Part shown: piece by piece, positions 2,906 through 5,744 of the stretch
Layout: every line of letters begins with the position of its first letter
Position numbering within the stretch: position 1 is the first letter of the stretch
Notes under the pieces: model-generated
Told to the model about the DNA's origin: nothing
Seen by the model: the letters and a program-made list of their open reading frames with translations, nothing else
The model's database searches: none
Made by a program: the position numbers and the translations under genes
Assembly (NCBI RefSeq): GCF_003231495.1
Contig: NZ_PQWO01000054.1
Coordinates: 1 to 5,764 of the forward strand
Direction: 5' to 3'
DNA: 5,764 bases
DNA from: Acaryochloris thomasi RCC1774
GTDB lineage: Bacteria > Cyanobacteriota > Cyanobacteriia > Thermosynechococcales > Thermosynechococcaceae

Positions 2906-3133
2906 CTAAACGCCGGAGAGTGATCTCGTTATAACAACGACAGAAGCTCCGATAATTCCAGCCCAGGCCGTACCAATGAGAGCAAGGGTCAAACCCCACA
3001 ACCGACCATCCCACTTTTCTACCTTGGCATTGGTGGCCTTGATATCTACATCAATCGTCGTAAGCCGATTATCAATGGCATCAAAACGACTCAATACCTT
3101 TTGCTCAAATGATTCCGGTGTTGCCTGCGTCAT
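2906..3133 (-). CDS. Small membrane protein (75 aa): N-terminal coiled-coil-like segment plus one C-terminal TM helix, an XhlA/holin-like architecture
   Basis: The hydrophilic heptad-like N-terminus (FEQKVLSRFDAIDNRLTTIDVDIKATNAKVEKWDGR) is followed by LWGLTLALIGTAWAGIIGASVVVI. The ATG overlaps the upstream stop as ATGA (3130-3133, minus strand). Confidence 0.7.
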   Translation of the reverse strand: MTQATPESFEQKVLSRFDAIDNRLTTIDVDIKATNAKVEKWDGRLWGLTLALIGTAWAGIIGASVVVITRSLSGV

Positions 3134-3354
3134 ATCAAACCCTCACGCTCTGCAGCTTCACGGATCACCCGTCTCAGCCACGCTGACTTATTCGGAAGCC
3201 GATCAACCGCAGCTTCCACCTCAGGCTCCAAACAAGTGCCTGTAGTACGCCGAGACAACTTGGGCGCAACTTCAGAATCAAGGCGAACTGAGCGAAGATG
3301 TTCAGTCTTTGGCGAAGGATTGGGCATATATGCATCATAAGCAGGATAGAACAA
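3130..3354 (-). CDS. Putative ribbon-helix-helix (CopG/Arc/MetJ-like) DNA-binding protein, first gene of the minus-strand operon
   Basis: The C-terminal TCLEPEVEAAVDRLPNKSAWLRRVIREAAEREGLI has a strand-helix-helix pattern. An earlier SVRLDSEVAPKL segment repeats the strand motif. The longest start is TTG 3354; ATG at 3327 (MPNPSPK...) is the more conventional start. The gene lies next to the 24-bp palindrome. Confidence 0.7.
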   Translation of the reverse strand: MFYPAYDAYMPNPSPKTEHLRSVRLDSEVAPKLSRRTTGTCLEPEVEAAVDRLPNKSAWLRRVIREAAEREGLI

Positions 3355-3415: not shown

Positions 3416-3439
3416 TGTATGCATCATATGATGCATACA
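3416..3439. promoter_or_regulatory. Perfect 24-bp palindrome TGTATGCATCATATGATGCATACA in the divergent intergenic region: candidate operator (or oriT inverted repeat)
   Basis: Verified as self-complementary base by base. It sits in the AT-rich 187-bp spacer between the divergent operons (3354 leftward, 3542 rightward), next to the RHH gene. Confidence 0.6.
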
Positions 3440-3442
3440 TGA

Positions 3443-3449
3443 TATTATA
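3443..3449. promoter_or_regulatory. Overlapping candidate -10 hexamers: TATTAT on + (3443-3448) and TATAAT on - (3449-3444)
   Basis: The hexamers are read directly and lie immediately right of the palindrome. I found no convincing -35 at 17-bp spacing on either strand, so the promoter calls are tentative. Confidence 0.35.
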
Positions 3450-3541
3450 GATACATACAAACAAAGCAAAGCCACCGCCCAATCCCGGAAAGAAACAAGC
3501 GGTGACGATGCACTCCCAAGACTAATCAGGAGATTTCCATT

Positions 3542-3817
3542 ATGACTATTTCCCTCGCCCCTGCAACAGCCCAGCAGTCGCAACTCTTCTGTGTCGATGC
3601 CGAAGTCGAGCAGTTCGACCCACTCAACGAGTGCATGGTCCGCGAAGATTACACCTTCGCCTGTGAGCGCAAAGGCGGTTACGTCCAACGCATCAAAGCC
3701 TGGGTTGCAACCAATTGCACCTTTGGTACTGTTGCCCCCAACCTTATCGAGCTGTATTGCTCTGAATGGAAGACAGCAGCAGACGACCGTATCGCAGCCA
3801 TCGACGACCAGTTCTAA
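3542..3817 (+). CDS. Hypothetical acidic small protein (91 aa, 5 Cys), first gene of the plus-strand operon
   Basis: ATG 3542 is preceded by AGGAG (3528-3532) with a 9-nt spacer. I count 14 D/E versus 7 K/R. No motif recognised. Confidence 0.75.
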   Translation: MTISLAPATAQQSQLFCVDAEVEQFDPLNECMVREDYTFACERKGGYVQRIKAWVATNCTFGTVAPNLIELYCSEWKTAADDRIAAIDDQF

Positions 3818-3895
3818 GCACCAGGGGGCCGCAGCGCCCCCATCGCCTCACCATTGCAAACCCCAGCGCTACAGGGGACTACGCGAGAAATACTC
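3818..3895 (+). repeat. Intergenic module copy 1 (GC hairpin + C-run/G-run element + RBS region)
   Basis: GGGGGC-CGCAGC-GCCCCC at 3824-3841, then CCCC-N9-GGGG at 3861-3877 containing CGCTACA, then GAGAAATA..ATG. It aligns with 4094-4171 and 4550-4625. Confidence 0.8.
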
Positions 3896-4093
3896 ATGCT
3901 TGAAGTTTCAGCCGCTCCAATCCCAGACACCTGGACTGCCTCAGACTCCAATGATGACCCTGAGATATTCGCAGTCAGCACGGGAAACTCACCAGACCAA
4001 GCGATCGCAAACTACTTCGACAATTGCTTAGAGCAAGATCCCCATTACATGAACGATTCGTCTGAATTCGTTCGCTTCATGCGGACCTACTAA
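3896..4093 (+). CDS. Hypothetical very acidic small protein (65 aa from ATG 3896)
   Basis: The ORF track starts at TTG 3854, inside the conserved intergenic module. ATG 3896 sits at the same module position as the starts of the next two genes. I count 8 D + 4 E versus 2 R and 0 K. Confidence 0.7.
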   Translation: MLEVSAAPIPDTWTASDSNDDPEIFAVSTGNSPDQAIANYFDNCLEQDPHYMNDSSEFVRFMRTY

Positions 4094-4171
4094 CGCAAAC
4101 AACAGGGGCCATAGCGCCCCCGCCGCATACCTTCCGTAAACCCATCGCTACAAGGGACAGGAGAAATATAC
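4094..4171 (+). repeat. Intergenic module copy 2
   Basis: GGGGC-CATAGC-GCCCC at 4105-4120, then CCC-N10-GGG at 4141-4156 containing CGCTACA, then AGGAGAAATATAC-ATG. Confidence 0.8.
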
Positions 4172-4549
4172 ATGATTACCGCAGAAGCACTTCAGCAAAA
4201 TCTCGCGCATTGCACCGGCACCGAGCAATGGTACCGGCATCCACTGGGAATCACTTACACAGACGGCATCAAGATATTGACCGAGGATGCCCAGTGTATG
4301 TGGCTTGTGGATGCGATCACATCTCACCAAAAAAGCTACCAGATTATATACAACCCTGACCTACAAGAGTTCCAGCTCTGGCTGCTGAAAGTTAATGAGG
4401 ATCGCAGCGCAATCCTAGCCTGCTACGAAGACAGCCCCAGCACTTGCGAACCTGCGATCAGCCAGCTAATCCCCTCCACGGACTTCCCGATGCAGGAAAT
4501 CAAGCTTTATATGGAGCAAGGAACACTACTGCTTCCCTCAGAACACTAA
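4172..4549 (+). CDS. Small acidic protein (125 aa), paralogue 1 of a tandem pair; DUF6876-like by recollection
   Basis: ATG 4172 follows GGAG. It shares with the next gene the motifs YTDG, WLV.AI..HQK, LQ.FQ.W, CY, FP and G.L.LPSE. I count 17 D/E versus 6 K/R. Confidence 0.85.
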   Translation: MITAEALQQNLAHCTGTEQWYRHPLGITYTDGIKILTEDAQCMWLVDAITSHQKSYQIIYNPDLQEFQLWLLKVNEDRSAILACYEDSPSTCEPAISQLIPSTDFPMQEIKLYMEQGTLLLPSEH

Positions 4550-4625
4550 AGCCATCGGGGGCCACAGCGTCCCCGCAGCAATACAAACGCCCGACCACTG
4601 CAAGGGCCATACAGGAGTAAGACCC
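4550..4625 (+). repeat. Intergenic module copy 3
   Basis: GGGGGC-CACAGC-GTCCCC at 4557-4574 (one G.U pair), then GCCC-N11-GGGC at 4589-4607, then AGGAGTAAGACCC-ATG. Confidence 0.8.
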
Positions 4626-5000
4626 ATGAAACCGAAAGAACTTGAGCAACGGCTCAGGCAGTTTCAGCCTAGCCCCACTCGCCACCGACATTTCACTGGG
4701 CTTTTATACACCGATGGAATTCTATACATCATTGAAAAGCTTGAAATTGAGTGGTTAGTACTTGCGATCGCCACTCACCAGAAAGGCACCAGCATCACAG
4801 CTAGCAAAGAACTACAGCAATTCCAATGCTGGAAATTTCACAATGGCAGCACTCCTGTCCTGTTTTGCTACAGGGATAGGCTCAACACATCTCCAGAATT
4901 TGGCCGTCAAGTCCGTGCTACAGCCTTCCCCTTGCCTGAACTAGAGCTATTCGTTGTCGAGGGTTGTCTCATGCTGCCCTCGGAATACGAAGGCTCCTGA
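4626..5000 (+). CDS. Small protein (124 aa), paralogue 2 of the tandem pair; DUF6876-like by recollection
   Basis: ATG 4626 is preceded by AGGAG. It is collinear with 4172-4549, at roughly 30 percent identity by eye, with the same conserved motifs and C-terminal LPSEY. Charge is near neutral. Confidence 0.85.
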   Translation: MKPKELEQRLRQFQPSPTRHRHFTGLLYTDGILYIIEKLEIEWLVLAIATHQKGTSITASKELQQFQCWKFHNGSTPVLFCYRDRLNTSPEFGRQVRATAFPLPELELFVVEGCLMLPSEYEGS

Positions 5001-5054
5001 TTATCGCGGCCACCCAACGCAGAAATATTGATCTATTCAGAAGGACGTATTGAT

Positions 5055-5258
5055 ATGCAGCCAACATTACCCAAAAGACTCCAAAGACATCCACAACATG
5101 CAATCGCAGTTGCGATCGCAAGTCTAATCAACGATTTACTATTCGCTGGCCGGATCGACTGGAACACGGCGGTTTACTACTGTCCGCCTGGAGCCTTTCA
5201 TTTGCTGGAATGTCCAGCAAGCCATGCAACAGTCGCAATCAAATCAAAGGAGGTTTGA
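5055..5258 (+). CDS. Hypothetical small protein (67 aa from ATG 5055)
   Basis: The ORF track starts at TTG 5028. ATG 5055 is preceded by AAGGA about 10 nt upstream. The stop lies 3 nt before the next start. No motif recognised. Confidence 0.55.
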   Translation: MQPTLPKRLQRHPQHAIAVAIASLINDLLFAGRIDWNTAVYYCPPGAFHLLECPASHATVAIKSKEV

Positions 5259-5261
5259 CCC

Positions 5262-5744
5262 ATGAAGACACTACGGCCCCTCGGGTTCGGCGAATCCCTC
5301 CGAACCCTGTATATCTATGCTCACAGAGCCAACGGAAATAAACTCTGGTTTCAGCTCATCGACAGCGAACCTCAGGAACTACCCCCGTCCCTCACCGGCT
5401 ATCTCAAAGCCATCGAATTTCCCAAGGTCGAACGACGGGGAAAAGAGTGCTGCAAACTCAATATCACCCTGACCGCACACCGGCCCGTCGTCATCGAATG
5501 CGGTCATGATTCTACTTTTGCGAAAAGTTTCATGGTTGCGATCGCAAGTCTAACACCAGCTCAACTGCAGCAGCCGATTACTCTTGAGGCCCAGCCGGGA
5601 ACGCAGGATGAATCTGTTCTGTTTTGCAATGTGTGGCTAGGGTACAAGCGCATCTTTCTGGAGTGGGACGAGAACACCGACTGGAGAGCCGTCGCTGGGC
5701 AGGCGATCGCTAACGTTCGGGCAGCTCAGGGGGTGAGGGCATGA
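5262..5744 (+). CDS. Hypothetical protein (160 aa)
   Basis: ATG 5262 follows AAGGAGG (5248-5254). It is tightly packed with its neighbours, and its stop overlaps the next ATG as ATGA (5741-5744). No motif recognised. Confidence 0.8.
   Translation: MKTLRPLGFGESLRTLYIYAHRANGNKLWFQLIDSEPQELPPSLTGYLKAIEFPKVERRGKECCKLNITLTAHRPVVIECGHDSTFAKSFMVAIASLTPAQLQQPITLEAQPGTQDESVLFCNVWLGYKRIFLEWDENTDWRAVAGQAIANVRAAQGVRA

Follow-up and report, generated by a model that had tools for sequence, protein, structure and literature searches.

Structured elements within operons are known from several systems. The REP elements of malE-malF and the puf operon hairpins are intercistronic structures that stabilize mRNA, and elements that mask the Shine-Dalgarno (SD) sequence or serve as translational operators include the cyanobacterial hsp17 thermosensor, the MS2 replicase operator and the T4 RegA targets. 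On the Bacillus plasmid p576, the ribbon-helix-helix (RHH) protein Reg576 binds dual TTATCCC heptamers before the establishment genes (PMC6294495). The Frpo elements of plasmid leading regions are long hairpins that rebuild -35/-10 boxes in single-stranded DNA (ssDNA; PMC11541004). Here, we describe a module that recurs in three consecutive intergenic gaps (W1, W2 and W3) of contig NZ_PQWO01000054.1 of Acaryochloris thomasi RCC1774. The stretch analyzed, hereafter the window, is 5,764 nt long, and gap coordinates follow its numbering. The module is a genuine conserved element of cyanobacterial plasmid establishment operons and is undescribed in the databases and literature searched. The reading that we favor, at about an even chance, is that it is one cis-acting module in the sense-strand mRNA, combining a protective or insulating 3' hairpin for one cistron with a translation-initiation element for the next gene.

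Each gap contains, in the same order, a GC hairpin (hairpin 1) 6-11 nt past the stop codon, a spacer, a C-run, a short conserved box, a G-run, the SD sequence and the ATG (Table 1). The positions, sequences and order of elements given by an earlier, sequence-only reading of the window were recovered as described. The three gaps can be aligned end to end with a mean column identity of 75%, including flanks. The pattern GGGGCN6GYCCCC occurs at three plus-strand sites in the window against 0.01 expected from shuffles, and one extra minus-strand match is the palindromic reading of the first site. Whole-gap folding energies are like those of shuffled sequences (z = -0.36, -0.36 and -0.96); thus, the signal lies in recurrence and conservation, not in stability. 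The stretch after hairpin 1, previously taken for a variable spacer, proved to be C-rich and G-poor (48% C and 9% G, versus approximately 29% C and 21% G in the genes on either side) and to hold a degenerate first copy of the box. Since TTG 3854 is in frame with the following 65-aa gene, the second half of W1 is formally an extension of that open reading frame (ORF; 3854-3895). This extension is not conserved and is probably not coding, because the orthologous module L018a has an in-frame TAA.

We aligned 19 copies of the module from stop codon to ATG (alignment A2), built a covariance model from them (R1), and ran it over both strands of 531 kb of fetched loci. Matches were restricted to the plus strand of Acaryochloris-type operons. 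They comprise the model's own seed sequences and one copy cut by a contig end (E = 5.3), so the result means that nothing else matches and is not an independent confirmation. The operons of Acaryochloris marina plasmids and their relatives (A. marina-type) carry one full module each, at the junction of the first gene and the DUF6876 gene. The window lineage (the window and loci L009, L017 and L018) carries modules W1, W2 and W3, with the 65-aa gene and W2 missing from L018. Within pREB8, a complete 120-kb plasmid, the composite motif is confined to this operon, and in approximately 249 kb of related plasmid DNA, also used for the box counts below, GGGGC-N4-7-GCCCC lies inside modules only. The module is absent from 46 more distant metagenome DUF6876 loci (all at most 53% identity), and a scan of genome contigs yielded just one distant locus, from Argonema, that is likewise without it. 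A search with all Rfam families at a permissive threshold returned no match to the module, the sole window match being a chance-level snoRNA elsewhere (E = 3.3). A DNA search of a phage collection returned no match, and the module pattern gave a single chance match in IMG/VR, in a GC-rich coding region. Since copies are confined to these operons and absent from the 46 distant loci, the element is lineage-restricted and operon-specific, not a dispersed repeat. A REP/BIME origin, for which many dispersed copies would be expected, was rejected on these plasmid data, and the module differs from the REP and puf hairpins in that, among the plasmids covered, it stays within a single type of operon.

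Hairpin 1 consists of 5-7 GC pairs (-10 to -14 kcal/mol). Its stem is nearly invariant among module copies and its loop is not: the proposed loop consensus CRYAGC stands in the window but does not extend to relatives, which have AACAGC, TATAGC, CAAATC, CATT, CATCGC, ACCCCT or ACCCTA. Nearly all other gaps of these operons open with a variable hairpin just past the stop codon. These post-stop hairpins show compensatory changes (GGGTGGT/ACCACCC, GGGCAGT/ACTGCCC, GGGTGA/TCACCC). Among the non-Watson-Crick pairs of the intercistronic hairpins, W3 included, 11 cells are G·U on the plus strand and none is A·C, corresponding to about 6-7 independent events. Without strand-specific selection, G·U and A·C intermediates are expected equally often. 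The compensatory changes, together with variation that passes through G·U and never A·C, indicate that the sense strand is the folding strand and that hairpin 1 is, as judged from these sequence variants, a selected sense-strand structure. The sense-strand folding, the placement anchored to stop and start codons and the G-poor composition make mRNA the likely molecule, and we infer that the element is read as RNA rather than as sense-strand DNA.

The view that hairpin 1 is not a canonical terminator was borne out, as there is no U-tract and a terminator scan found no plus-strand site in the three gaps. An intrinsic terminator was therefore rejected despite the stable GC hairpin; the sequence 3' of it is C-rich instead (ATCGCC, CGCCGC, GCAGCA). 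A rut-like function of the C-rich tract was discarded because the tract spans just ~30 nt and because Rho is missing from cyanobacteria, in which the majority of 3' ends have no explanation (PMC12642595). Kissing or pseudoknot pairing between the hairpin 1 loop and the box (TAGCG/CGCTA) fits W2 but was also set aside, the loop not being conserved in relatives. We likewise discarded an antisense-strand G-quadruplex, which A. marina-type copies could form but which the window copies do not conserve. The resemblance to the malE-malF REP and puf hairpins lies in a GC-rich stem without a U-tract, placed just past the stop codon inside an operon, with variation that implies sense-strand action. What sets the module apart is that its hairpin is accompanied by a conserved, C-rich tract of boxes and by a G-run; no RAYT-type gene was seen with it.

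The box (CCC-N2-3-CRCYNCA) occurs twice per gap. Copy 1 lies directly 3' of hairpin 1, whose 3' arm provides its C-run, and is degenerate in the window; copy 2 lies 19-23 nt further on, just 5' of the G-run. Boxes number 70 against ~9 expected, an approximately 8-fold enrichment, and are mostly on the sense strand inside operons. They stand upstream of at least four unrelated families, namely DUF6876, the window 65-aa gene, a 109-aa gene, and a gene preceded by a 32-nt gap in L022 and L023, where the flanking runs are present as well. Between window-type and A. marina-type copies, module identity is 0.60-0.62, compared with 0.42-0.47 at third codon positions of the adjacent DUF6876 genes, which argues for purifying selection on the module.

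Partition-function folding of all 19 copies placed the G-run in a paired state throughout (P(unpaired) at most 0.14 in 19/19 copies) and left the AUG mostly open. The pairing partner is whichever of several C-runs is available. A. marina-type copies have no SD-like sequence other than the G-run, which lies at -13/-14 from the ATG, while the window lineage has a canonical AGGAG 3' of the G-run, which we read as a later addition. The second hairpin of the sequence-only reading did not hold up as a discrete structure, having just 3-4 GC pairs around a 9-11 nt loop, and RNAalifold returned no CCC/GGG stem. Within these runs, the CCC/GGG core is invariant apart from TCC/GGG wobbles in L022 and L023; the sole hint of covariation is a fourth pair, which W1 and L018a form as C-G and W3, L009b and L017b as G-C. 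In our reading, the several C-runs redundantly clamp a G-rich element that is the SD or lies close to it, and the depletion of G may keep the remaining tract unstructured. The likeness to SD-masking stem-loops is that A. marina-type copies have a conserved loop between C-runs that are predicted to pair with a G-rich SD, and that the arrangement recurs before several early genes. The module differs from those systems in its stems of 3-4 bp, in the position of the window-lineage SD outside the stem, and in that no trans-acting factor was identified. Cyanobacterial ribosomal protein S1 is reported to use pyrimidine-rich upstream tracts; candidate readers of the box would be S1, another protein, or an RNA.

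Several other partners or analogs of the box and its surroundings were considered and rejected. For a separate antisense RNA carrying the anti-box TGWAGCG, most matches in the DNA examined are the reverse strand of the modules themselves and the rest are scattered and non-conserved. In W2, CUUCC/GGAG could form an outer helix over the canonical SD, but this helix is not conserved in W3, L009b or L018a. Resemblances to CsrA (ACA...GGA), MazF and tRNA-fMet 3' end sequences were judged coincidental, with no cognate factor present. The lambda nut site (boxA plus boxB, with boxA CGCTCTTA/TGCTCTTTA) does not fit a box of the form CGCTWCA that recurs from gap to gap instead of standing at a single place behind the promoter. 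A 7-mer match of the box to UGUAGCG in 16S rRNA helix 23 has a chance expectation of ~9% and falls in a paired rRNA segment. As a separate observation, box-like sequences (CCC-N3-CACTTCA-GAGGGGGAGGAA) recur within the gene that follows DUF4326 or at its end (L002 9089, pREB8 34399, L022 10072, L023 10062). On pREB7, the ORF stops at such a CACTTCA element, while other plasmids read on; an internal restart or a frame difference could explain this.

In the favored mRNA reading, hairpin 1 would form in the transcript, where it would hold back 3'-to-5' exonucleases, mark processed 3' ends or serve as a weak attenuator. Its effect would be to insulate the upstream cistron and to contribute to relative expression levels along the operon. 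The C-rich, G-poor tract would stay single-stranded, display the two boxes and close with the G-run. By clamping the G-run with its C-runs, the tract would set how ribosomes load onto the next gene, and may gate this step. Among the roles raised by the sequence-only reading, mRNA stability and translation is the best supported, given the compensatory or sense-strand G·U variation and, in A. marina-type copies, the paired G-run at SD distance. We accordingly infer a stabilizing role together with translational control. Several points weigh against this. The full-module hairpin 1 is nearly invariant and gives no covariation signal, being uninformative because it hardly varies, and the covariation comes from sister hairpins in neighboring gaps. 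G·T wobbles are tolerated in ssDNA too, leaving room for a role of the sense strand as ssDNA. The canonical SD window of the window copies is 0.42-0.62 unpaired and thus largely accessible by prediction, so SD masking is not the whole story in window-type copies. Hairpin 2 is thermodynamically marginal, in line with the unremarkable whole-gap z-scores, and a hairpin in the 5' untranslated region (5'UTR) of the operon shows some A·C intermediates. Finally, the effects on RNA processing, stability and translation are all deduced from sequence.

The module had been described as standing before unrelated genes, and this was confirmed for the 65-aa gene, DUF6876, and an A. marina 109-aa protein without similarity to DUF6876. 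The stronger claim that it is conserved independently of the coding sequence stands only in part. Unrelated genes do follow the module, but W2 and W3 precede two DUF6876 paralogs (37% identity), and W1 is the ortholog of the single A. marina module between gene 1 and DUF6876, lying directly 5' of DUF6876 in L018. Because of this orthology and the paralogy of the genes behind W2 and W3, much of the triplication reflects descent by duplication or insertion. On sequence comparison, the three copies are probably derived as follows: W1 is the ancestral leader, W3 came with the DUF6876 duplication, and W2, which goes with the 65-aa gene, came with that cassette. These same relationships, and the one full copy per A. 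marina-type operon at the gene 1/DUF6876 junction, would suit an explanation in which the module is simply an inherited DUF6876 leader, copied by duplication and cassette insertion, in which, beyond a generic post-stop hairpin and ribosome-binding site, box, C-runs and G-run have no specific function. We regard this as unlikely, since box and runs also precede the 109-aa gene and the 32-nt-gap gene, the module evolves more slowly than synonymous sites, and the box is enriched and strand-specific.

The modules also lie at cassette boundaries. This follows from the indel of the 65-aa gene and W2, which has modules at both boundaries, and from the A. marina plasmids, where the hairpin and box after DUF6876 are constant and the next gene is variable. 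In A. marina-type operons that gene encodes a PAPS reductase, an 85-aa protein, a 111-aa protein or an ECF-like sigma factor, the last being a 245-aa protein with Sigma70_r2 and r4 directly 3' of DUF6876 in L012 (583-1320). The 5' part of a gap moves with the upstream gene and the 3', ribosome-binding-site-proximal part with the downstream gene. Homologous exchange between the repeated modules is enough to account for this placement. The suggestion that the modules are recombination sites is thus supported, indirectly, by the module-bounded indel, but integron-like core sites and a long palindrome are absent. The module resembles integron attC sites as a ~60-80 nt structured element between promoter-less, co-oriented ORFs behind one promoter, with a module-bounded indel. 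It was rejected as an attC site because the three gaps contain no GTTRRRY (of the RYYYAAC/GTTRRRY cores) and only local hairpins rather than a spanning palindrome. Unlike in integrons, no intI gene is consistently adjacent to the modules.

The exchange of gap parts with their neighboring genes and the module-bounded indel would also fit a role of hairpin and box in ssDNA during conjugative entry, as an ssi-like priming signal or as a mini-site for a MOBF relaxase or ssDNA recombinase, with cassette shuffling as a consequence. The related plasmids are MOBF/MPF_T conjugative and encode the CyRepA1 replication protein, and the layout of a GC hairpin with a single-stranded box 3' of it is one that we take to resemble relaxase nic sites and RSF1010 ssi sites. 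We nevertheless consider such a role improbable. The element is placed relative to stop codons, SDs and start codons, and no similar hairpin and box were seen near mobF on pREB8. The folding strand is the sense strand, whereas in known leading regions the transferred strand has been proposed as the transcribed one (PMC11541004). A more specific form, in which the module is a mini nic- or ssi-like site for a relaxase, primase or other ssDNA enzyme and the leading-region genes are exchangeable cassettes or are primed gap by gap, seems very unlikely to us. Such a site would be functionally analogous to integron attC, with a different enzyme. The points that leave room for an ssDNA reading are the tolerance of G·T wobbles in DNA and the module-bounded indel. 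Like the Frpo/ssi leading-region ssDNA promoters (PMC11541004), the modules are hairpin-forming intergenic elements among early plasmid genes. An Frpo/ssi ssDNA promoter was rejected because the stems are 5-7 bp and the gaps contain no promoter hexamers, and, unlike Frpo-controlled genes, the module operon is served by a conventional promoter in double-stranded DNA, with an operator.

Two further observations concern hairpins and repeats on related DNA. At 9567-9640 of pREB8 (L014) lies a nested palindrome (TTGTAACAC...ACACTACAAATTTGTAGTGT...GTGTTACAA) with the box variant CACTACA in one arm, the sole sequence that it shares with the box. It is followed at 9770-9920 by about ten GGGTACCA iterons, 1.4 kb from mobF, and is a candidate oriT or partition site. 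In soil and sediment metagenomes (L029 ~5850-5958, L030, L031, L038), an imperfect ~27-bp hairpin with arms GCTTTCC...CCGCCGTGGGGG / CCCCCACGGCG...GGAAAGC precedes DUF6876, abuts the SD and recalls ssDNA promoters of the Frpo type.

A gap could alternatively combine a terminator with an internal promoter that a dedicated RNA polymerase or an alternative sigma factor would use, with box and G-run as promoter and start. The sequence AACCC-AT-CGCTACA-A-GGGAC is one that we take to be superficially like T3/T7 promoters (AACCCTCACTAAAGGGAGA). In addition, the ECF-like sigma gene of L012 stands right after DUF6876, pREB8 has a sigma-70 family gene, and the operon's first gene has its own sigma-70-like promoter and no box. 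We give this explanation only a slim chance. The spacing from box to G-run varies between 0 and 3 nt (up to 5 nt before GGAG), which is incompatible with a fixed start site and for which a T7-like polymerase promoter was rejected. The gaps contain no -10/-35 matches, the ECF sigma gene is missing from the window and most operons, and a start at the G-run of A. marina-type copies would leave a 13-nt leader. No single-subunit polymerase gene is annotated on pREB8, where no dedicated search was made.

The operon itself has its closest published parallel, by analogy, in the RHH-repressed establishment genes of p576 (PMC6294495). As with the Reg576 operators, a heptamer is repeated before establishment genes on a conjugative plasmid with a divergent RHH repressor, and the precedent raises the possibility that a plasmid repressor recognizes the box as its DNA operator. 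The two direct box copies per gap and the divergent RHH- or HTH-type regulator gene upstream agree with this. We hold it to be the faintest of the chances weighed here. The module heptamers are 19-23 nt apart rather than ~2 bp as for Reg576, are strand-specific, and lie in gaps without promoters. They are also constant although the regulators and the main-promoter operators, palindromic or direct-repeat, differ between plasmids. The strict strand asymmetry of composition and G·U variation favors a reader of a single strand.

The control region of the window operon contains a perfect palindrome, a -10-like sequence, a 5'UTR hairpin and an SD (Table 1). The divergent 74-aa protein, whose C-terminus looks RHH-like by eye, has no Pfam or NCBIfam match, and the equivalent position in relatives is occupied by an RHH_5 or HTH regulator. 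Operator and regulator family differ at the same place from plasmid to plasmid. The arms of the 5'UTR hairpin covary among relatives (GGCATCGC/GCGATGCC, GGCACCGC/GCGGTGCC, GGCATCCG/CGGATGCC). The same architecture is found on A. marina pREB2/5/7/8 and pREC4, on plasmids of strain S15 and the Moss Beach strain, and on several metagenome contigs. The operons of relatives comprise at least 10 small genes, including DUF6876, PAPS-reductase-like, DUF4326, Sak4-like AAA_24 ATPase and SSB genes. In Leptolyngbya boryana pLBX, DUF6876 adjoins a MobF relaxase, ArdC and RadC. The DNA relatives of the window are restricted to large MOBF/MPF_T conjugative A. marina plasmids and a few other cyanobacterial plasmids, and the window is rich in the cyanobacterial HIP1 palindrome GCGATCGC. 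We read this operon as one of the establishment or leading-region type under zygotic-induction-style repression.

Table 1 Features of the window (control region, genes and intergenic modules).
Feature	Position	Strand	Description
W1	3818..3895	+	gap 91-aa gene / 65-aa gene; R1 68.6 bits
W1 hairpin 1	3824-3829 / 3836-3841	+	GGGGGC / loop CGCAGC / GCCCCC
W1 box 1	3839-3850	+	degenerate, CCC-AT-CGCCTCA
W1 C-run	3861-3864	+	CCCC
W1 box 2	3867-3873	+	CGCTACA
W1 G-run	3874-3877	+	GGGG
ATG after W1	3896	+	
W2	4094..4171	+	gap 65-aa gene / first DUF6876 gene; R1 64.1 bits
W2 hairpin 1	4105-4109 / 4116-4120	+	GGGGC / loop CATAGC / GCCCC
W2 box 1	4124-4130	+	degenerate, CGCATAC (as CCC-GC-CGCATAC)
W2 C-run	4141-4143	+	CCC
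W2 box 2	4146-4152	+	CGCTACA
W2 G-run	4154-4156	+	GGG
W2 SD	4159-4163	+	AGGAG
ATG after W2	4172	+	
W3	4550..4625	+	gap first / second DUF6876 gene; R1 59.3 bits
W3 hairpin 1	4557-4562 / 4569-4574	+	GGGGGC / loop CACAGC / GTCCCC, one G·U
W3 C-run	4589-4592	+	GCCC
W3 box 2	4596-4602	+	CACTGCA
W3 G-run	4604-4607	+	GGGC
W3 SD	4613-4617	+	AGGAG
ATG after W3	4626	+	
Next gap	5001..5054	+	no full module, no R1 match; possible degenerate remnant CCACCC-AA-CGCAGAA
Polycistronic unit	3542..5744	+	91-aa gene, 65-aa gene, two DUF6876, 67-aa and 160-aa genes
DUF6876 genes	4172-4549 and 4626-5000	+	
67-aa gene	5055-5258	+	
160-aa gene	5262-5744	+	
Operon control region	3416..3541	+	palindrome, -10, 5'UTR hairpin, SD
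24-nt palindrome	3416-3439		perfect, TGTATGCATCATATGATGCATACA; presumed operator, between divergent 74-aa gene and operon
-10-like sequence	3444-3449	+	TATTAT
5'UTR hairpin	3473-3478 / 3499-3504	+	CACCGC / GCGGTG
SD of first gene	3528-3533	+	
Divergent 74-aa gene	3130..3354	-	presumed operon repressor; C-terminus RHH-like by eye

The AlphaFold2 model of the window DUF6876 protein (4172-4549) has an alpha/beta fold, modeled with high confidence (pLDDT 91.4, pTM 0.84). The nearest DUF6876 protein is from Acaryochloris thomasi (86% identity). A PDB sequence search gave no match, and the sole, weak fold match is an uncharacterized Enterococcus faecalis protein (2r41, TM 0.48-0.56). DUF6876 as an RNA-binding autoregulator was rejected, as this fold match is only weak and distant DUF6876 loci lack the box. 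On pLBX (L006 4631-7537), each gap of the ArdC-RadC-DUF6876 region closes with a long GC-rich hairpin and a T-run directly 5' of TTGGA and the ATG, a different, terminator-like punctuation in the same kind of operon. Elsewhere in the window, the first part of the ORF at 401-916 duplicates the PP-loop N-terminus encoded by the PAPS-reductase-like gene (913-1917), after which the ORF diverges. The underlying repeat (461-524 / 973-1036, 88% identical) looks like a partial duplication or a recombination scar directly 5' of the intact gene. An exact 19-nt repeat, GTTGCGATCGCAAGTCTAA, at 5109-5127 and 5535-5553 is an extended HIP1 palindrome in two ORFs and encodes VAIASL in both.

The establishment, or leading-region, genes decide whether a conjugative plasmid survives on entering a new host. 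Work on how these genes are controlled, through ssDNA promoters and RHH repressors, has dealt with plasmids of enterobacteria and Bacillus and, to our knowledge, hardly with cyanobacteria. The module marks cassette exchange points in these operons and suggests a post-transcriptional layer in the large Acaryochloris plasmids, in which a hairpin and a conserved tract for ribosome loading would punctuate each cistron. If confirmed, it would offer a testable case of cistron-level expression setting in such an operon, and the engineering of cyanobacterial operons would gain an intercistronic part that is both defined and portable.

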